Positions 20,356 through 29,089 of a stretch of 62,482 nt of DNA are shown here, piece by piece. Source of the DNA: Acidimicrobiaceae bacterium (GTDB lineage: Bacteria > Actinomycetota > Acidimicrobiia > Acidimicrobiales > Bog-793). The first letter of the stretch is position 1, and each line of letters begins with the position of its first letter. The stretch is from positions 1-62,482 of the forward strand of contig PLPK01000052.1 of assembly GCA_003159795.1 (NCBI GenBank), read 5' to 3'. Position numbers and translations under genes: made by a program. The notes beneath the pieces are model-generated. The model searched no databases. It had not been told where the DNA came from and saw only the letters and a list, made by a program, of their open reading frames with translations.

Positions 20356-20670
20356 GCGCCACGGCACCCCGGCCCGCACGTGCTTGTCCGCGTGGAACCG
20401 CCGAGGTCTGGAGGCCCCGCGGAGGAGCTCGTCATCACCGCGGACGGCACAGTGCCGTCCATCCGGCCGGGAGGTCTGGGCCAGCCGATTTGGATCTCGC
20501 CCGCGTGGCTCGCAGGTTCTCGGGCGCCTTGCCGGCCGGCATCGTCACCGACCAGGCGCGTCCGGGCGACGCCTCGAATCAGATCGTCCGCACGTTCTGG
20601 AACCCGCAGCTCCTGTCGACAGCGTGGTTCGCCGAGTCCGACAGGTCCCTCGGTCGGGGGATGTTGCTGT

Positions 20671-20692
20671 ATAGTACTAGAAATAGTAGTAT
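20671..20692. promoter_or_regulatory. Inverted-repeat operator upstream of YtrA-like GntR
   Basis: ATAGTACTA-GAAA-TAGTAGTAT (one mismatch), very AT-rich for this genome, 10 bp before the ATG. Confidence 0.6.
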
Positions 20693-20702
20693 CATAAACA
20701 CC

Positions 20703-21044
20703 ATGGAGATCGATCCAGCAAGTCCGATCCCGTTGCACGAGCAGGTCGCGGCTGCGATCCGCCGTGCCATCGCGGACGGCGAAGCCCGTCCAGGCGGCCG
20801 GCTTCCGCCGGCTCGGGATCTGGCTGCCGTTCTCGGCGTCAACCCGAACACCGTGTTTCGCTCCCTGCACACCCTTCGTGACGAGGGACTGCTCGAGTTT
20901 CGACGGGGACGAGGCGTCACCGTTACCGGCGCCGCTCCCCAGAACAGCGCAATCGTCACCAAAGCCCGTGAACTGGTGGCGTTGGCGCGGCGGATGGGAT
21001 ATCGGCGCGAGGAACTGGCCAAGCTCATCGAGCAGGTCTCGTGA
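20703..21044 (+). CDS. GntR family regulator (YtrA-like, short C-terminus)
   Basis: LHEQV...RLPPARDLAAVLGVNPNTV...LRDEGLL..RRGRG. Confidence 0.9.
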   Translation: MEIDPASPIPLHEQVAAAIRRAIADGEARPGGRLPPARDLAAVLGVNPNTVFRSLHTLRDEGLLEFRRGRGVTVTGAAPQNSAIVTKARELVALARRMGYRREELAKLIEQVS

Positions 21045-21050
21045 GGAGTC

Positions 21051-22169
21051 GTGGCAATGACGCTCGTCTGTGAACAGCAAGTATTGGTGGTGCTCGAGGC
21101 CGAGGCACTGATCAAGGAGGCACGCCGGAGGCAGCACAGACGCTGGTTTGCCCTCGGCGCGCTGGTGGTCGTGGTCGCGGCCACGGTTGGCGTCGTTGCG
21201 GCCCGCAACGGTGGCGGCCGACCCGCCTTGCGACCGACGGCGCGGGTGTCGCCATCCACAACTGCCGAGCTGTTCGGGAGATCCGTCGCGGTCCCCTCCC
21301 AGTTCATCGCGGCCGGTTGGCCGGTGCAGAACATGCCCGCGGGCCAACTCAGCTGGGGAAGAGAACTCGTGCTGATGGCGACGAAGGATGGCCGGGTGCA
21401 GCGCGTCCTGGCCCGCGGTTTGCTCACCACGGGCGGGAGCGCCGGGAGCACCGTCTACTTCGTGCGGAACTCCCCGAATGGCGTCTCGGACATCGCCAAG
21501 GTCTCCACGGCTGGCGGACCCGTCGGGACCGTCGCCGTCGGTGCGCTGCCGACGCCGAGCCCGAATGGCCGCTTCCTCGCCTATGTCTCACACTCCACGG
21601 ACCTCGAAGTGCGTGATCTCGTCACGGACGCGACGACGTCGATGGCGCTGTCCTCCCTCATGCCCGGTGTTCACGGGCTGATAGTCGTGGGACTGGCCTG
21701 GCTGTCGCCAGGTGACCGGCTCGCCTTGATCGTCCGTTCCGTGTTGAACGCCGAGGCCGGTGCGAGACTCGAGGTCGTCGGTGTCCGCGCGGGTCATCTG
21801 GCCGGAACCGGGACGAGGCGTCTTGGTCCGGGCGAGACCTGGATCTTCCTTGCCCGCAGCTCCCAGCCGAACACGCTGCGCGCCGCGTGGATACCGACCA
21901 GGGGAACGTCGACGGCCATTCACGTCGTGCGGATCAGTCTCTCTGGCGGCCGCGCGACCATTGCCAACATCGCCGCGCTTCCCGGGGTCTGTGGCGCCGG
22001 CGCCTTGGATGACGTCGATCCGAGCGGGCGGTACGTGCTGTGTTCGGTCGGGAGCTCCGGCAGCACATCCTTCGCCCACATCGATCTCGTGCGCTTCGAG
22101 CACGGAAGATACGTCGTTGCCGCCTCCACGGGCGCCGATCGATTCGTGATCACTTCGGCCTCCTGGTGA
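21051..22169 (+). CDS. Membrane-anchored extracellular beta-propeller-like hypothetical protein
   Basis: EALIKEARRRQHRR followed by TM helix; PSPNGRFLAY and LAWLSPGDRLAL blade-like motifs. Confidence 0.55.
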   Translation: MAMTLVCEQQVLVVLEAEALIKEARRRQHRRWFALGALVVVVAATVGVVAARNGGGRPALRPTARVSPSTTAELFGRSVAVPSQFIAAGWPVQNMPAGQLSWGRELVLMATKDGRVQRVLARGLLTTGGSAGSTVYFVRNSPNGVSDIAKVSTAGGPVGTVAVGALPTPSPNGRFLAYVSHSTDLEVRDLVTDATTSMALSSLMPGVHGLIVVGLAWLSPGDRLALIVRSVLNAEAGARLEVVGVRAGHLAGTGTRRLGPGETWIFLARSSQPNTLRAAWIPTRGTSTAIHVVRISLSGGRATIANIAALPGVCGAGALDDVDPSGRYVLCSVGSSGSTSFAHIDLVRFEHGRYVVAASTGADRFVITSASW

Positions 22170-22247
22170 GCGCTCACGGCCTGCGACGGGTCGTGTCGAC
22201 CTGCCGACCGGGCACTGCATGACAGCCCGACTGCTCCCCCCGACACC

Positions 22248-22488
22248 CGGAGGCTCATCCTCGGCCGCCGTCACCTGGAGGCCGTTCTCGCAAGGTACGT
22301 CGAGCACGACAACTCGCACCGTCCCCAAGGGTCGCTCGGACGATGTCCGCCATCTCCAGCGGATTCGACCCCTCAGGGTTTAGGCGACGCCGACCTCAGA
22401 AAGCTGCGAAGAATCGACCGTCCAGGCGGGCTCATCCACGAGCACTCGATGGTGGCCCGAAGCGGGTCGACGGATTCTCGGCACCCAC
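22248..22488 (+). pseudogene. 3' remnant of an rve integrase-core (IS481/IS3-like) transposase with element end
   Basis: Own translation: RRLILGRRHLEAVLARYVEHDNSHRPQGSLG...RPGGLIHEHSMVA, resembling HYNxHRPHxSL...LGGLIHEY; followed by GGATTCTCGGCACCCAC. Confidence 0.7.
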
Positions 22489-22756
22489 GGGTTCACGTCG
22501 GCGGCCCGTCGGTCGCGTACCTGCGACGCTGACGCCATTTCCTGCTCTACGACACATTTGCCCTTTTGGCAGCCCTGCTAGTGTTCGCGCCCAGACGGGT
22601 AGCAGCTGGTACCTGCAGTTCCTGGAGGCGCAGTCAAATGGGGGCCACCGGACAGGTTTCCTGCCGGTTCCTGGGGTCCTGAGCACTGACGGGTCACTGC
22701 TCCGAGCGTGGCCGACGCGACTCCGGAACTGATTGAAACCAACCAAGGGCGCGACG

Positions 22757-25519
22757 ATGAAGGGGACTGGCGGCACCGCATCAGAGCCGAAGGACGAGCC
22801 CCCGGCCGCCGACGCGGGCCAGGTGCCGACGGAGCCGGGTCCGGACCAGCCTCCCGGGAGGTCTCTGTCGGCCGACATCTTCATCTCCTACTCCCGCAAG
22901 GACATCGCCTTCGCGCGCTTGCTCCGCTCCTCTTTGGAATCTTCGGGCCTCAACACCTGGATCGACTGGGAAAGGATCCCGGTTGGCGAGCAGTGGTGGT
23001 CCGAGATCTCCCAGGCGATCGAGCGGTGCAACGTCTTCATGTTCATCATCAGCGCCAGCTCCATCGGCTCTTCGGTCTGCAAGGACGAGATCAACGAGGC
23101 GCTCAAGAACCACAAGCGGGTCATCCCGGTCCTCGTCGACAACGTGACACCCGAAGCCGTGCGCGAGTTCATCCCCGAGCTGCCGGGCTTGAACTGGGTC
23201 GTCTTCGAAAAGGACCACCTCTTCCGGCTCGGCGAAGACGCCGAGGCCGCGCCCGGGCGAGACGAAGACCGCCTGGTGGCATTGCCCAACACGCCCCAGT
23301 TCGAGCAGGCCCTGGCCAAGCTCACCGAGACGGTTCACACCGACTGGGACTGGGTGAAAGCTCATACCCAGTTGCAGGTGGACGCCCTCAGGTGGTCGGC
23401 CCGGGGTCGGGACGCCAGCTACTTGGTCCGCGGCTCGGCCCTCGAGGACGCGGAAGGCTGGCTCGCGCGCGCCGTCGGTAGGGACCCCCAGCCCACCCTG
23501 CTCCAGTCGCAGTTCATCTCTGCTGGCCGTCTCGAAGAGGCCCGTCGCCAGCGCGAGGCAGCCCGGCGACAGCGCCGGCTGCTGCGGGTGATCGCCATTG
23601 CACTCGTGGTCACGGTGGCGCTCGGGTGCGTTGCCATCATCCAGCGTTCCGATGCTCGGCGAGAGGCGCACATCGCCCAGGGGCAGGCTCGCCTCGCCGA
23701 GTCGGGAGACCTGGCAGCCGAGTCGACCAACGTGATGCCCGGCAATGCTGGGCTCGGGGCGTTGCTCAGCCTTGAGTCCTTGCGGCTCTCAGCGAACGCA
23801 ACGGCTAGGGCCGCCGTCTTCAACGCCCTCGGCCAACCCCTCGACACCATTCTTTCCGGGCTTTCCAGTCGCGACATTGTTGGCGACTTCAGGCCCATCG
23901 ATGGCGTCACCTTCAGCCCGGACGGGAAGATCCTGGCCATCGTGCAAGACGACGGCAACGTGGTGCTCTGGGACACGGCCACGCACGCCAGGCTCGGCGA
24001 GCTCGGCGACGGGAACGCCATCGGCGCCGTCGCCTTCAGCCCGGACGGGAAGACCGTGGCCGCCGGGGATAATGACGGCAACGTGGTGCTCTGGGACACG
24101 GCCATGCGCACCAGGCTCGCCCGGTTCAGCGAAGTGAACCCCATCGACAGCCTCGCGTTCAGCCCGGACGGGAAGACCCTGGCCGGCGGGGATGACGAAG
24201 GTCTCGTCGTGCTCTGGGACACGGCCACGGGCACCCGACTTGGCCAGCTCGGCCAGCTCAGCGGCGACGCAATCGTCCAAGTTGCTTTCAGCCCGGACGG
24301 CAAGTCGCTGGTCACCGCGGGTTCGGGCGGTGTGGTGCTCTGGGACACCGCCACGCGCTCCAGGCTCGGCCAGCTTGGCAGCCACATGATGTTCTTTGGG
24401 AGCGTCGCCTTCAGCCCGAATGGGCAAACTCTGGCCACGGCGAATGCGAGCGGTGCGGCGCTCTGGGACCTCGCCACGCGCTCCAAGCTCGGCCAGCTCG
24501 GCCTGACCAACAGCAGTAGCCAGGACCTCAGCGCCGCCTACAGCCCGGACGGGAAGATCCTGGCTATCGGGGATGACGAGGGCAAGGTGGTGCTCCGGGA
24601 CACGGCCACGCGCACCCAGCTCGGCCAGCTCGGCAAGAACATGAACCTGGTTGGCGTCGCCTTCAGCCCCGACGGGAAGACCCTCGCCACCGTAGAGACC
24701 GCGGAGTGGGGGCTGGTTTACGGCAAGGTGGTCCTCTGGGACACCGCCACGCGCACCCAGCTCGGCCAGCTCGGGAGCGGCGACCAAGTCTGCAGCGTCG
24801 CTTTCAGCCCGGACGGGAAGACTCTCGCCACCGCGGATTTTGACGGCAAGGTGGTCCTCTGGGACGCGGCCACGCACACCAAGCTCGGCGAGCTCAGCGG
24901 CGGGCTCCGCCTCGACAGCGTCGCCTTCAGCCCGGACGGGACAACCCTGGCCGCCGGGAATGACGAGGACGACGTGGTCCTCTGGGACACGGCGAAGCGC
25001 GCCAAGCTCGGCGAGCTCAGCGGCGGGAACCCGAATGAGCAGGAGACCTTCACCCCCCAGGGGACCATAGCCTTCAGCCCCGACGGGAAGACCTTGGGCG
25101 CCGTGGACGCCAGCGGCAACGTGGTGCTCTGGGACACTGCCACGCGTACCCAGCTCGGCCAGCTCAGCGACGGGAGCCCCACTGAGAGCGTCGCCTTCAG
25201 CCCCGACGGGAAGACCCTGGCCACCGGGGACGACGCAGGAAACGTGGTGCTCTGGGACACGGCCACGCGTACCCAGCTCGGCCAGCTCAGCGGCGACGTC
25301 CAGATCGACAGCGTCGCCTTCAGCCCGGACGGGAAGGACCTGGCCAGCGCGGATCTGGACGGCACGGTGGCGCTCGTCCCCTCGCTGTACTGGGCGGGGA
25401 ATTTCGTCAGGGTCCAGAAGATCCTCTGCGCCGAGGTAGGCGCCAACCTCACACGAGCGCAGTGGCGTCAATACGTTCCCAATGAGCCTTACCGCGCCAT
25501 CTGCCCGGTCCACCCCTAG
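22757..25519 (+). CDS. TIR domain - helical linker - TM - WD40 repeat protein
   Basis: DIFISYSRKD...WIDWERIPVG...SSVCKDE (putative catalytic Glu), WSARGRDASYLVRG linker, hydrophobic helix, 12 (F/Y)SP(D/N)G repeats. Confidence 0.9.
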   Translation: MKGTGGTASEPKDEPPAADAGQVPTEPGPDQPPGRSLSADIFISYSRKDIAFARLLRSSLESSGLNTWIDWERIPVGEQWWSEISQAIERCNVFMFIISASSIGSSVCKDEINEALKNHKRVIPVLVDNVTPEAVREFIPELPGLNWVVFEKDHLFRLGEDAEAAPGRDEDRLVALPNTPQFEQALAKLTETVHTDWDWVKAHTQLQVDALRWSARGRDASYLVRGSALEDAEGWLARAVGRDPQPTLLQSQFISAGRLEEARRQREAARRQRRLLRVIAIALVVTVALGCVAIIQRSDARREAHIAQGQARLAESGDLAAESTNVMPGNAGLGALLSLESLRLSANATARAAVFNALGQPLDTILSGLSSRDIVGDFRPIDGVTFSPDGKILAIVQDDGNVVLWDTATHARLGELGDGNAIGAVAFSPDGKTVAAGDNDGNVVLWDTAMRTRLARFSEVNPIDSLAFSPDGKTLAGGDDEGLVVLWDTATGTRLGQLGQLSGDAIVQVAFSPDGKSLVTAGSGGVVLWDTATRSRLGQLGSHMMFFGSVAFSPNGQTLATANASGAALWDLATRSKLGQLGLTNSSSQDLSAAYSPDGKILAIGDDEGKVVLRDTATRTQLGQLGKNMNLVGVAFSPDGKTLATVETAEWGLVYGKVVLWDTATRTQLGQLGSGDQVCSVAFSPDGKTLATADFDGKVVLWDAATHTKLGELSGGLRLDSVAFSPDGTTLAAGNDEDDVVLWDTAKRAKLGELSGGNPNEQETFTPQGTIAFSPDGKTLGAVDASGNVVLWDTATRTQLGQLSDGSPTESVAFSPDGKTLATGDDAGNVVLWDTATRTQLGQLSGDVQIDSVAFSPDGKDLASADLDGTVALVPSLYWAGNFVRVQKILCAEVGANLTRAQWRQYVPNEPYRAICPVHP
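23890..25380 (+). repeat. 12 highly similar WD40-coding tandem repeats (~120-140 bp)
   Basis: Recurrent TTCAGCCCGGACGGGAAGACC and GTGGTGCTCTGGGACACGGCCACGC blocks. Confidence 0.9.
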
Positions 25520-25660
25520 CCCAGGGGCATGTGACGAGTTGCGCCGCCCCTCCGAACGTCTGGCCCGCGGGGCGGTCCCGGCGGAGCAACGGGTGCCGAC
25601 CGCGCGCGTCGAGACCTCCGGTCACCAATCCTGAGGCACACGGCTGCGCCCAGGCCCTGA

Positions 25661-28147
25661 CTATCGCTCCCGCACGATCTCGAGCCCGACCTCGGCCAGG
25701 TAGGCCGGGATCTGGCGCACAGTGTCCCGGTCCCAGCCCTTGGCTTCGTCCGACAGCTCCGCCCAGCTGACGATGCAGGGACTGGTCTTCTTGGCGACGT
25801 CCTTCTTCGGGCCCCATACCCAACCGTCCATCAGGCGCTCGACGTTCCACCTCGCGTGCTCGACTTCGGCGAGTGTCTCGGCCTCGTCGTCGGTCAGCTG
25901 CACGAGCCCGGCATCCGGGCCGGCTGCTCGCACCGCGCAGCCGATCTCGCGGAGCTTGTCGTAGATGGCGTCAGCCTGTTTGCGATTTGCTTCCTTCAGG
26001 CTGTCCTCGAGCGCCGCCCACTCGGCCAACGACAGGTCGTCGCTGACCGCGTTCCTCTGCCGCTGGCGGTAGTTCTCGTGGATCGCCCGCGCGATGGTCT
26101 CCCGCATGCCGCCGTCCAGCGTCGAGGTGTCACGCTCGACGAACGCCTTCACCGTCAGCGCCTCGGCGGGCAGGCGCAGCAGCCTGGGCGACCGGCTCCA
26201 GTCGTCATCCTGCAGGAGTTTGGCCGCGGCACGACCGCTTCCGTCGACAATCGCGACCCATGCGCCGAGGGCGAGAGCGATACGGTACTCGGCCGCCGCG
26301 ATGGGACCACCGCCGATGCCGAGCAGCTTGACCTCCGACGCGTTCGTGCCCGTCGCGATGAGATCGATCCAGCTTTGCAACGACTCGAGCGGGGTAAAAC
26401 CCTCACCGGCGGTCGTCCGGATCTCGTCGTAGCGACCCGGATCCCTGTCGACCGCGGCGTCGGCGGGGACGAACAGCGGGACATAGCCGACGGCGCGGAT
26501 CGACCCCGGACACGCGGCGCGCAGGTCACCGACCAATCCGGAGACGCCCTCGATCGTGCCGCCGGAAATGACCGTGCCGGTGAACCCGTCGAAGGCGTCG
26601 ACCAGCAGCGAGCGACAAGCGATCGTCTGATCGCCTGAGACGGTGCCGCCGCCCGCGACGATGACCACAGGACCGCTGATCGGCTCGCACGTCGTCGAGG
26701 CGAGCGTCTTCAGCTTCCTGAGCGCGTCGTCCGAAGGAAACTTCTCGGCTCGAGCGGCCAGCAGCAGCCGTAGCACCCACTCGTGGCCCGGCAGCTTGTC
26801 GGCGACGGGTGCCAGACGGTCGAGCGAATACAACGTCGTGTCGATCATGAAAGGAGCGGTGGTCAGTTGCAGCGCTTTTCCGTAGGCGGCCAGGCTCTCG
26901 TAAGACTCCCCGAGCATCAGATGAAACTCGCCCATGCTGTAGAAGGCCCACGGCAGGTTCACGCCGACGTCGGCCTGGTCACGGCAGCGCTCGATCGCCG
27001 AGCGGATGATCGGCCCGGTGAGCGAGACCACGGACGTGTCGCGTCGGTAAGAGATCTCCGACTCGAGGTAGTTGGTCAGCGCGTAGGGATCCGATGGATC
27101 GACCTCGAACGCCTGGCGGTACAGCTCGCGAGCCCGGTCGTCGTCAACGCCCTTGCACGTGCCGGCGAGCGAGGCCAGCGCGTCCGCATCAGTGGGGGAC
27201 AGCTCGATGGCCGCTTCGAGATAGCCCTGACCCTGGAGGTACTCGGCGCAACGCGGCGTGTCTCGATGCAGCTTGCACGTCGCAACACCGAGGTCGCGCA
27301 GCACCGTCGCGTCCTGCGAGTCGACGTACTCGCTGAGAATGTCCACGGCCTTGTGCCAGTCACCGAGCTCGATCGCAAGCTTGCCGATCCTGGCCGCCAG
27401 GTCGGCGTTCTCGGGATCGACCGTGAGGACGAATTCGAGCACCTCCAGTTCGCGGCGCATCTGATCCTCGGTCATGTAGGCGCCGTAGCTGGAGGCGTAC
27501 TCCCTAAGGCCGCCGTGGATTCGCGAGAACGAGCTGTCGGCCTGCTCGAGAACCGCCGCCACCCGGGCGAATTCACGTTGCCACCTGTCCGGGATCTCGA
27601 ACCCGGCCTTGTAGGCGAGCTCGTGGGCGGTGTCGGCCCAGGCGTGCTCGAGGATGGTGCGCACCTGCACCTCGGCTCGGTGGTTCGGCATCGCGAGGAG
27701 CTCGGGCGGGACGTCCACCTCGATCTCCTCGGTGGGAAAGACGCCCGATTTGAAACTGACGATGTAGTGGACGGAGCGGTAGCCGAACTCGCTCGGCTTG
27801 AGCCGCTGGCGAACGTCGATGCTGTTGTCCCAGTCGATCTCGAAGTGCTCCTCGACGAACTTGGAGATCGCGTCAACCTCTTCGGACGTGTGAACGATGA
27901 CCCTGCCGCCGCAAAGGTCGGTGAACTCATCGACGGGATTCGCACAGCGTTTGCGGAAGATCTTCTCGGCGAAGCTGGCAATCGACTTCGGCCGTGCCTG
28001 GACGATGGCGAGCGGTGCGGTCTTCGTCGCGGCCTTGCCCAAGACCTGCTCGAGTGTCGCGGCGAACACCACGTAGCCCGGACGGCGCTCCCTGAAAGCC
28101 GCGATCTGGCCGCGGGCCCAAGCGAGCTCGGATTCGCCCTCAGTCAT
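25661..28147 (-). CDS. RelA/SpoT synthetase - TPR - SLOG-like - RyR domain protein
   Basis: RPKSIASFAEK, DLCGGRV, GYRSVHY, EVQVRTILEHAWA (SYNTH); TPR helices; IVAGGG/VISGGT.GV/GGGPIAAAE (SLOG); IARAIHENY and EHARWNVER..GWVWG...PCIVSWAELS (RyR); AAGGGAG RBS. Confidence 0.85.
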   Translation of the reverse strand: MTEGESELAWARGQIAAFRERRPGYVVFAATLEQVLGKAATKTAPLAIVQARPKSIASFAEKIFRKRCANPVDEFTDLCGGRVIVHTSEEVDAISKFVEEHFEIDWDNSIDVRQRLKPSEFGYRSVHYIVSFKSGVFPTEEIEVDVPPELLAMPNHRAEVQVRTILEHAWADTAHELAYKAGFEIPDRWQREFARVAAVLEQADSSFSRIHGGLREYASSYGAYMTEDQMRRELEVLEFVLTVDPENADLAARIGKLAIELGDWHKAVDILSEYVDSQDATVLRDLGVATCKLHRDTPRCAEYLQGQGYLEAAIELSPTDADALASLAGTCKGVDDDRARELYRQAFEVDPSDPYALTNYLESEISYRRDTSVVSLTGPIIRSAIERCRDQADVGVNLPWAFYSMGEFHLMLGESYESLAAYGKALQLTTAPFMIDTTLYSLDRLAPVADKLPGHEWVLRLLLAARAEKFPSDDALRKLKTLASTTCEPISGPVVIVAGGGTVSGDQTIACRSLLVDAFDGFTGTVISGGTIEGVSGLVGDLRAACPGSIRAVGYVPLFVPADAAVDRDPGRYDEIRTTAGEGFTPLESLQSWIDLIATGTNASEVKLLGIGGGPIAAAEYRIALALGAWVAIVDGSGRAAAKLLQDDDWSRSPRLLRLPAEALTVKAFVERDTSTLDGGMRETIARAIHENYRQRQRNAVSDDLSLAEWAALEDSLKEANRKQADAIYDKLREIGCAVRAAGPDAGLVQLTDDEAETLAEVEHARWNVERLMDGWVWGPKKDVAKKTSPCIVSWAELSDEAKGWDRDTVRQIPAYLAEVGLEIVRER

Positions 28148-28170
28148 GATTGGAGTCTCCCTTGTGCGGC

Positions 28171-28581
28171 CTATTGGTGAGAGATCAGACCGAAGTACGA
28201 CCTGATCTGCCTCGCCTCCGAAGAGCCGGGAGGACAGTGCTCATACTCGTCCGGCCCTATCCAGGCGAAGGCGCTGTGCTCCGAGCTCAGCGTGACCTCG
28301 CCGTCGACGTAGTCGCACACGAACGTGACGCCGGTGACCCAGAACGGCTCCTTTAGGAAGTGCCAGGTCGCGAACGGACGACCGACCTCGATTGTGAGCC
28401 CGGTCTCCTCCGCGACCTCGCGCTTCAGTGCCGTTTCCAGCTCCTCGCCGTAACGGATCTTTCCGCCGGGTAGCTCCCACAGGCCCAGGTCGAGGCTACT
28501 GTTCCCCGATCGCTGCAACAGCAGGATCTTGCCCTCCCGCCTGACGATCGCCCTAGCAGCCACGCCGAGCGGCTTATCCAC
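28171..28581 (-). CDS. NUDIX hydrolase
   Basis: WELPGGKIRYGEELETALKREVAEETGL Nudix box; GGAAAGGA RBS before GTG 28581. Confidence 0.9.
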   Translation of the reverse strand: MDKPLGVAARAIVRREGKILLLQRSGNSSLDLGLWELPGGKIRYGEELETALKREVAEETGLTIEVGRPFATWHFLKEPFWVTGVTFVCDYVDGEVTLSSEHSAFAWIGPDEYEHCPPGSSEARQIRSYFGLISHQ

Positions 28582-28825
28582 AGCAGTTCCTTTCCACAAC
28601 GCCAGCCAGCCCGAGTGCCATGGCTTTCTGGCAGGCGGTCCGCTCGCGCAAACGAGCGGCTGAGGCCAGGGCGTGCAACTCTTCCACGAGATTGTCTCGA
28701 GCGGCTGAACGCCGACTATAGGTATCGCGGGCGGAGATAGGCAGTGTCGCTGGGCCGGGTCTGCGAAAGGGTCGCGCTTCACCTGTAGGTGGCGCGTATC
28801 CGATCCCTCGAGACTGAGCCGAACC

Positions 28826-29089
28826 TTGGCCACTGTAGGTGAGGCGTATGTCTTGCGTCACGACGATCCACCCGTCCTCGGCGTCATGATCACCGGGATC
28901 GCCATCGCCGGCACGGCGATGGTCCTGCTCGAGATCGTCGGGCTCTTCGTCGGCCCGCACGGCGAGCTCGGTCGTGAGCGGTGGGCCACGTCGAGATCCC
29001 TTGATCTGGCGCCGGGTGGTCCAGAAGGGTGCCGGTTTCGTCGGCCTAGTCCTCATCGGCAAAGCCGGGATTTGGGTGTTCTCACCTGA
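28826..29089 (+). CDS. Possible small membrane hypothetical protein
   Basis: Single hydrophobic helix; weak support. Confidence 0.25.
   Translation: MATVGEAYVLRHDDPPVLGVMITGIAIAGTAMVLLEIVGLFVGPHGELGRERWATSRSLDLAPGGPEGCRFRRPSPHRQSRDLGVLT

Follow-up and report, generated by a model that had tools for sequence, protein, structure and literature searches.

A membrane TIR-WD40 receptor gene beside a NUDIX and RelA/SpoT-SLOG-RyR gene pair: a candidate TIR-gated alarmone module in an acidimicrobial genome

Introduction

In type I Thoeris, the product of a TIR protein is bound by the SLOG domain of the effector ThsA (10.1101/2021.01.06.425286). Toxic small alarmone synthetases (toxSAS) such as CapRel are used in conflict and are restrained by their own C-terminal part or by a partner (PMC10118264). 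On the phage side, the PF02026 protein RyDEP cleaves 2'/3' cyclic ADP-ribose (2'/3'cADPR; gcADPR) to ADP-ribose (ADPR) via H75 and D117, with the ligand held by W78 and H100; of eight homologues examined, six bind gcADPR, without cleavage in those tested (PMC13232231). A second phage RyR protein, RyR Tad, binds 3'cADPR at 43 nM (10.64898/2026.06.04.730250), and in the animal channel TRPM2 the LSDAT-type SLOG (MHR1/2) binds ADPR (PMC13143021). Here we describe a locus in which such parts stand together. It lies in contig PLPK01000052.1 of an Acidimicrobiaceae bacterium (assembly GCA_003159795.1), a stretch of 62,482 nucleotides that is called the window below. Positions 22757-28581 encode a TIR-WD40 membrane protein and, convergent to it, a NUDIX hydrolase followed by an 828-aa RelA/SpoT synthetase-TPR-SLOG-RyR protein. 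The module is real, recurrent and apparently uncharacterised, and on balance we read it as a TIR-messenger-gated alarmone system whose most likely purpose would be defence by growth arrest.

By analogy, the module is predicted to work like Thoeris, and by its content it falls outside that system. The two are alike in the TIR gene with a catalytic Glu adjacent to a SLOG-fused effector and in the exchange of TIRs at one locus (10.1101/2021.01.06.425286). They differ in that ThsA is a SIR2-SLOG protein, whereas the effector here is a RelA/SpoT synthetase without SIR2, its SLOG is of the LSDAT type with no ThsA model match, the TIR, which is of the TIR_2 family, is part of a membrane receptor of 920 aa, an RyR domain and a NUDIX gene are added, and PADLOC makes no system call. 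RelP and RelQ (YwaC/YjbM) are the closest solved relatives of the synthetase and share all catalytic motifs with it, but the protein described here has 600 further residues (TPR, SLOG, RyR), is paired with NUDIX and occurs in archaea. With toxSAS and CapRel it would share a synthetase held in check and used in conflict; sequence similarity to them is marginal, and the predicted trigger is a small messenger, in contrast to their direct binding of phage protein. RyDEP and RyR Tad carry the same PF02026 domain, with RyDEP H75/W78/D117 corresponding to H764/W767/D806, but the present copy is a tandem that the host encodes and that is joined to an effector next to a TIR gene, and it has Ser in place of H100 and Trp in place of Tad K170. 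TRPM2 likewise pairs an LSDAT SLOG, as an ADPR site, with a Nudix domain (NUDT9-H) (PMC13143021); unlike TRPM2, the module has no channel, and its NUDIX is MutT/NudG-like and tracks the synthetase instead of the SLOG/RyR module.

A search of full-text literature found no published description of the synthetase fusion or of the cassette, in line with an earlier sequence-only reading of this stretch, which knew of no described system with the combination; an earlier bioinformatic mention is possible, subscription literature being thinly covered. The accessible text of PMC7159879, PMC8195603, PMC7016017, PMC9503650, PMC10118264 and PMC13728456 mentions neither the protein nor the cassette, and host RyR-effector fusions are not described in the accessible parts of PMC13232231 or 10.64898/2026.06.04.730250.

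Results

The effector and its synthetase domain

The three open reading frames (ORFs) are uninterrupted, and the Pfam calls agree with the domains that the sequence-only reading had assigned to them. The effector gene (25661..28147, minus strand) is intact and encodes 828 aa, laid out as RelA_SpoT (52-181), TPRs (about 223-430), an LSDAT_prok SLOG and RyR (755-824), with no HD domain. The synthetase domain (about aa 1-215; 27503..28147, minus strand) has its closest solved relatives among RelP/RelQ-type enzymes and keeps the catalytic motifs of the RelA/SpoT small alarmone synthetases. Its residues R52, K54, K62, D77, R82, Y123, H127, E159, Q161 and H175, which we take from work on RelP/RelQ to be catalytic, are all retained in 137 of 149 distant homologues.

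Searched against solved structures, the synthetase profile matched RelP/RelQ-type proteins at E 5e-19 to 8e-14, vs E 5e-3 for 7ztb (a 'RelA/SpoT family protein', presumably CapRel) and 0.09 for FaRel2. By sequence, then, the domain does not fall in the tRNA-modifying CapRel/FaRel2 clade (E 5e-3 to 0.09 against its solved members), nor does the protein belong to the single-domain RelP/RelQ families, its NCBIfam score being 45 bits with a cut-off of 320. Because the domain resembles RelP/RelQ, (p)ppGpp is favoured as the predicted product; tRNA pyrophosphorylation and (p)ppApp, both of which had been considered in the sequence-only reading, appear less likely from the structure-profile scores. 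PADLOC and NCBIfam name no system for the three proteins, scores lying far below the curated cut-offs. The PADLOC run that the sequence-only reading had called for thus returned no defence system, and gave weak ThsB matches and the candidate single-gene model PDC-S33, which covers the synthetase domain alone.

The fusion is a recurrent one. Below E 1e-30 there are 923 representative homologues, and the best 120 listed align over 98-100% of its length with an identity of at least 51% to the protein. A scan of genomes gave 308 confirmed synthetase loci, the best 80 of which, counted once a partial locus, a pair of duplicates and the window itself had been set aside, served for the neighbourhood work. 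Their hosts belong to Chloroflexota, Actinomycetota, Gemmatimonadota, Bacteroidota and Planctomycetota, with 14 archaea besides; most are uncultured members of Chloroflexota, Gemmatimonadota, Actinomycetota or the archaea. Of 60 relatives of the source genome a single one has the full-length fusion, in the order ClpB-like, YbjN, NUDIX, synthetase, DUF4062-NACHT. Plasmids gave two synthetase-domain matches and nothing more. At five loci (L024, L032, L038, L047, L075) a frameshift or stop breaks the synthetase gene into two ORFs, as an assembly error or inactivation would do.

The NUDIX gene

The NUDIX gene (28171..28581, minus strand) encodes a MutT/NudG-like hydrolase of 136 aa with a complete Nudix box, whose G40, E46, R54, E55, E58 and E59 vary little or not at all among 49 members of the family; its nearest solved structures are MutT/NudG/NudI-like. 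It ends 23 bp before the start of the synthetase gene. Because the two genes are so close, lie on one strand and each have a purine-rich stretch ahead of the start, they are predicted to form one operon, with NUDIX as the first gene of two.

This pairing is the core of the family. NUDIX lies within 500 bp of the synthetase at 45 of the 80 genome loci, co-directionally in 43, and within 700 bp at 46 of the best 80 among 552 metagenome loci. It is fused N-terminally to the synthetase in 5 of 21 long homologues, which had been picked for an N-terminal extension or insert, and it stands next to the synthetase at 13/14 archaeal vs 33/62 bacterial loci, counts in which kin are not independent. None of 31 loci of the TIR-WD40 family has a NUDIX gene in the fetched flanks. 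The conserved unit is thus NUDIX plus synthetase, with an exchangeable TIR partner.

A Nudix enzyme of Thermus degrades ppGpp (PMC3153485). Since NUDIX tracks the synthetase and not the TIR, it is probably the eraser of the alarmone. In 12 of the 14 archaeal host genomes no HD-type hydrolase was detected; in the two that have an HD-type alarmone hydrolase, its gene adjoins the cassette, and the two proteins are near-identical and count as one event. Small HD-type alarmone hydrolases stand beside the cassette at three genome loci and one metagenome locus. Clearance of ADPR by NUDIX, by analogy with TRPM2, was considered and set aside as less likely, given its absence from the 31 TIR-family loci and its MutT/NudG-like character.

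The SLOG domain

Between the TPRs and the RyR domain lies a SLOG domain (aa 489-675; 26123..26683, minus strand), as the sequence-only reading had proposed. LSDAT, to which the MHR1/2 region of TRPM proteins belongs, was reportedly named by Burroughs et al. in 2015. The LSDAT_prok profile (PF18171) scored 22.5 bits on the whole protein (cut-off 25.4) and 28.1 on the isolated domain, and it was matched by 60 of 62 SLOG domains of the family (E up to 0.01), with no other Pfam family matching. A structure-atlas model of the domain gave a TM score of 0.49-0.50 (by query) to LSDAT clusters, and the atlas features agree. None of the 62 matched any PADLOC model, those for ThsA included. The domain is therefore best classed as SLOG of the TRPM (LSDAT) type rather than of the ThsA type, so that the proposed fold stands and the parallel with ThsA does not extend to the subfamily.

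The RyR domain

The C-terminal part of the effector (aa 676-828; 25664..26122, minus strand) is a tandem, Repeat12-like RyR, in which a complete repeat (753-826) follows a degenerate half-repeat (about 683-735). The sequence-only reading had recognised the domain and left it without a role, yet a pocket of the gcADPR type is kept in it. H764, W767 and D806 are in gap-free register with RyDEP H75, W78 and D117, and K782 corresponds to RyR Tad K147, a placement made by spacing alone. Of 254 database homologues, 234 retain the His, Trp and Asp triad, as do 52 of 59 locus copies; by fusion type, ATPase fusions keep it in 19 of 20 cases and TrkA fusions in 11 of 28. Because this pocket of the phage 2'/3'cADPR proteins is kept, we read RyR as a putative second messenger site on the effector, and its conservation as independent support, drawn from sequence, for the link to the TIR.

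RyR is also fused to unrelated outputs, namely TM-TrkA (TM, transmembrane) and P-loop ATPase proteins, to which atlas clusters add a SpoIIE phosphatase and a cyclase. It is rare in the family of the source genome, being found in 7 of 91 genomes, and occurs in 6 of 21 of genus g3. Two relatives of that family, at L140 (G049:C74) and L141 (G124:C18), carry a TIR gene, a solo RyR and a TIR-TM-TrkA-RyR gene in a row, with no synthetase; a functional link between TIR and RyR is supported by this fusion of the two within one protein. A protein of 880 aa, seen at L030:7862-10498 and at 11 more loci, combines a P-loop motif with two RyR repeats and has no Pfam or NCBIfam name other than RyR. At low identity the RyR domain matched 157 phage records, among them Arthrobacter, Pseudomonas and Salmonella phages; several of the records are labelled hypothetical or bear an unrelated name.

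The TIR-WD40 receptor

The third gene (22757..25519, plus strand) encodes a 920-aa protein of the order TIR-linker-TM-WD40. TIR_2 covers residues 41-152 (E 4e-25), and Glu111 occupies the catalytic position, which the sequence-only reading had rightly taken to be intact. A single hydrophobic helix (278-296) precedes 12 clear, highly similar WD40 repeat units of 123 nt. Because there is one helix with a basic run before it, the WD40 propeller probably lies beyond the membrane and would sense something outside the cytoplasm. The ThsB models of PADLOC match the TIR protein weakly, at E 1e-5 or worse. Over a 39-nt core, the 12 units (window 23904-25349) show 74-97% mutual DNA identity, which points to repeats amplified or homogenised recently, a feature shared with variable recognition domains. 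The genome (2.08 Mb, 95% complete) has a single TIR_2 match and a single RyR match, both within the insertion described below, and its sole synthetase beyond the long Rel protein is the one studied here.

Neighbourhoods of the synthetase and of the receptor

Neighbour profiles were built from the 80 genome loci and labelled via Pfam on 78 + 28 chosen neighbours. Within 5 kb of the synthetase, TIR genes occur at 26 loci, DUF4062 genes (which we take to belong to a TIR-related fold group) at 20, and one or the other at 41; TM-TrkA(-RyR) genes occur at 27, ClpB-like at 14, P-loop-RyR-RyR at 10 and SLOG-SLATT at 5. Where 5 kb were available on both sides, TIR or DUF4062 was present at 26 of 40 loci. 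Among the best 80 metagenome loci, several of which are the same DNA as genome loci, TIR lies within 5 kb at 25 and TIR or DUF4062 at 33, despite short contigs. The catalytic Glu column is kept in 39 of the 40 TIR domains that neighbour synthetase loci.

This is far above chance: of 39 genomes, 15 had a TIR gene no further than 5 kb away, vs 0.36 expected (109 TIR_2 matches in 169 Mb), about 40-fold, in genomes that had been selected for long flanks and with a TIR_2 count that may be low, although even a fivefold undercount leaves the gap. In three of these genomes (G015, G025, G027) the sole TIR_2 match is the synthetase neighbour. On a 36-row tree from a quick search, the TIR label requires 7 changes, at least 4 of them forced by strong branches; it is somewhat clustered (4/500 shuffles as low) and does not form one clade. 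The loci are related, so that the p-values overstate the significance.

The reciprocal search gave 31 loci of the TIR-linker-WD40 family, with RyR or SLOG genes in 14 (fetched flanks), and the same TIR-WD40 type occurs at 4 of the 80 metagenome synthetase loci. Sensor and effector therefore look like modules of a wider set that are variously paired. The sequence-only reading had expected the two large genes, and NUDIX, to travel together. Genes of the TIR family and NUDIX do accompany the synthetase far more often than chance allows, but the three genes do not form a fixed system: this type of TIR-WD40 protein is seldom the partner, its place being taken by TIR proteins of many other architectures or by DUF4062-NACHT proteins.

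Of 176 other neighbours, the nearest 145 were run against PADLOC, with long proteins cut to 500 aa; 10 matched, chiefly housekeeping homologues, along with two PycTM-like proteins. The TIR enrichment supports a functional link to TIR, and support from defence islands is nil. No Panacea-type antitoxin was present among the neighbours scanned. A solo SLOG gene often stands alongside RyR fusions. At L096:5965-8101 a 199-aa synthetase fragment lies right behind a TIR-WD40 gene and is followed by an IS110 transposase, apparently a disrupted copy of the pairing. ClpA/B-like ATPases, YbjN-type chaperones and once ClpP recur by the cassette (L055:7165-9462, L013:12748-13806, L142). The PycTM-like membrane proteins adjoin it in two Bathyarchaeia (L027:8628-9242, L028:12127-12738), and in Gemmatimonadota the synthetase is preceded, in most cases immediately, by a gene for a BtpA-family TIM barrel (L062, L063, L067, L069, L077).

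The insertion that carries the module

The whole module is held by an insertion of 8.67 kb in the pdxT–guaB interval (20357..29027). Its bounds are given by congener G043, in which the site is empty and the pdxT-side and guaB-side flanks are joined directly, so that the island seen in the sequence-only reading proves to be a real one. Both flanks were matched in 8/8 congeners and the three module genes in 0/8; the flanks lie on a single contig, 0-2.9 kb apart, in seven of them (directly joined in G043, 0.4-2.9 kb apart in six) and on different contigs in the eighth. The GC content of the insertion is 0.669, vs 0.706 for the window, and no terminal repeats of note were found at its ends. Congeners G047 (L144) and G044 (L145) have another insert, of 2.9 kb, at the same site, and because of this different insert the pdxT–guaB site is an insertion hot spot. 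The gene guaB is an alarmone target; its proximity was considered as a functional clue and taken as chance, guaB being the native flank in congeners.

Two further elements share the insertion. At 20490..22169 (plus strand) are genes for a GntR regulator and for a protein of 372 aa that has one membrane helix and a weak beta-propeller signal; both are absent among the recurrent neighbour families listed and give no sign of belonging to the system. The transposase remnant noted in the sequence-only reading is genuine and tiny: a C-terminal fragment of an integrase-core (rve) transposase at about 22170..22450 (plus strand), with weak scores (rve_3 E 0.002, below cut-off; tblastn E 4e-4 to an annotated integrase-core gene of a Streptomyces plasmid). 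A sequence search found no promoter-like or terminator-like sites. In three peat metatranscriptomes, 14 short contigs are strewn across the island, and these cannot demonstrate transcription. A profile search of the genome found no SIR2_2, and no STALD effector was found in a weak search that gave no match in any control genome either.

Discussion

From the genes, domains, catalytic and pocket residues and linkage observed here, we infer a chain of biochemical steps. The WD40 propeller outside the membrane would recognise a cue, for instance another cell or the adsorption structure of a phage, and would cluster the cytoplasmic TIRs, which would convert NAD+ to an ADP-ribose-type signal, most likely 2'/3'cADPR with some ADPR. 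As the phage homologues suggest, this messenger would bind the C-terminal half of the 828-aa protein, where the TRPM-type SLOG would be the obligatory gate and the RyR pocket would bind gcADPR, either co-activating the protein or setting a threshold by sequestering or cleaving gcADPR. Binding would lift a TPR-mediated restraint on the RelP/RelQ-like synthetase, which would make (p)ppGpp, drain GTP and halt growth; the presumably co-transcribed NUDIX would destroy the alarmone, cover leak and permit recovery. The locus would be one output arm of a modular family in which TIR or DUF4062 sensors are joined to RyR/SLOG effectors, the latter comprising the synthetase, TM-TrkA-RyR, P-loop ATPase-RyR-RyR and SLOG-SLATT proteins. 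Because the neighbourhoods are no classical defence islands, we infer the antiviral role and claim no more for it.

Several observations weigh against this reading. The TIR and synthetase genes are convergent, as the sequence-only reading had stated, with stop codons 141 bp apart, and so are not one operon; the transposase remnant beside them may reflect stepwise accretion. At 14 of the 40 well-flanked loci neither TIR nor DUF4062 lies within 5 kb, and in the reciprocal direction the full synthetase was found at one of the 31 TIR-WD40 loci (contig L076) and a fragment at one, while 16 had no partner from the profile set used. Restriction-modification, CBASS or similar genes were absent among the 145 other neighbours searched with PADLOC, and none of 18 candidates on viral contigs proved to be a relative. 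The SLOG profile gave no true match to solved structures, its top matches being spurious repeats. The second, phosphate-binding His of the phage proteins (H100/H154) is Ser789 here and mostly Ser in the family (Ser in 185/254, His in 18/254), so that the ligand or affinity of the pocket may differ from that of the phage proteins. NUDIX coexists with an adjacent HD hydrolase at L029 and L043 and may do something other than remove the alarmone. Lastly, RyR is dispensable, being missing from 12 of 57 synthetases, 4 of which have no RyR gene within 5 kb. That a neighbouring gene complements the RyR-less proteins in trans was considered and found unsupported (RyR neighbour at 8/12 vs 16/45, p 0.097).

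The last point bears on which domain reads the signal. If it were RyR that receives gcADPR throughout the family, SLOG would be secondary, as an ADPR co-sensor or a structural part, and the phage RyR sponges would be captured copies of the host receptor. The fusion of RyR to several unrelated outputs, the triad in nearly all ATPase fusions, the RyR/SLOG genes at almost half of the TIR-WD40 loci and the binding of gcADPR by most phage homologues examined all speak for it; we nevertheless think it rather unlikely, given the synthetases that have SLOG without RyR, the less well kept pocket of the TrkA fusions and the solo SLOG so often beside RyR fusions. SLOG is taken as the putative gate, and RyR as the second site, because SLOG is the constant part of the family, found in every full-length member, and RyR is not. 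It seems more doubtful still that NUDIX and the synthetase are self-contained and gated by cellular ADPR or another metabolite, with the TIR as a non-signalling fellow traveller at a hot spot. The convergent genes, the remnant, the GntR cassette in the same insertion, the 14 loci without a TIR-family neighbour and the single reciprocal link are what such a history would leave, but it would not account for a TIR-neighbour enrichment of about 40-fold when other defence genes are not enriched, and no alternative SIR2 or (in the weak search) STALD effector was found in the genome.

The same wiring might also serve a purpose other than defence, namely surface or contact sensing that leads to reversible dormancy in slow-growing sediment or peat organisms. 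An extracytoplasmic sensor and a dedicated eraser would suit a reversible response, classical defence neighbours are lacking and the hosts are mostly uncultured; we hold this, too, to be fairly improbable, since the patchy presence (full-length in the one relative of 60), the spread across domains of life, the exchangeable sensors and the NACHT and SLATT partners are marks of conflict systems, and phages carry RyR-domain antagonists of such signals. As to the output, (p)ppApp or tRNA pyrophosphorylation are both known for related toxins (PMC10118264), sequence is no safe guide to substrate, and many hosts are archaea, in which few such proteins are reported (PMC3153485). Either output nonetheless appears a poor prospect: similarity to the RelP/RelQ type is at least 10 orders of magnitude above that to CapRel or FaRel2, and partners that hydrolyse small molecules (NUDIX, HD) fit a nucleotide product, not a modified tRNA.

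Compared with these alternatives, we retain a TIR-messenger-gated alarmone system as the preferred reading. A wider reading is plausible, though we would stop a little short of calling it likely: prokaryotes would possess an undescribed network of TIR signalling whose gcADPR or ADPR is sensed by RyR domains of the host together with TRPM-type SLOGs, several effectors being gated in this way, and the present locus would form its alarmone branch. The logic resembles Thoeris, yet none of the Thoeris models in the libraries searched has this effector, these receptor domains or this membrane sensor. If the reading is true, a TIR messenger would switch on (p)ppGpp synthesis, tying NAD-derived immune signals to the alarmone of the stringent response, and the phage RyR sponges would have a host counterpart. 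The cassette would offer a possible reason for archaeal alarmone synthetases without HD hydrolases, together with a candidate alarmone-degrading Nudix family. Whether animal ryanodine receptors are receptors of cADPR isomers is a question raised by PMC13232231 and 10.64898/2026.06.04.730250, and the effector would provide a soluble protein with an enzymatic read-out for asking whether RyR Repeat12 domains are natural receptors of this kind. The nucleotide-sensing modules of animal ryanodine receptors and of TRPM2 would then cooperate in one microbial protein, archaea included.

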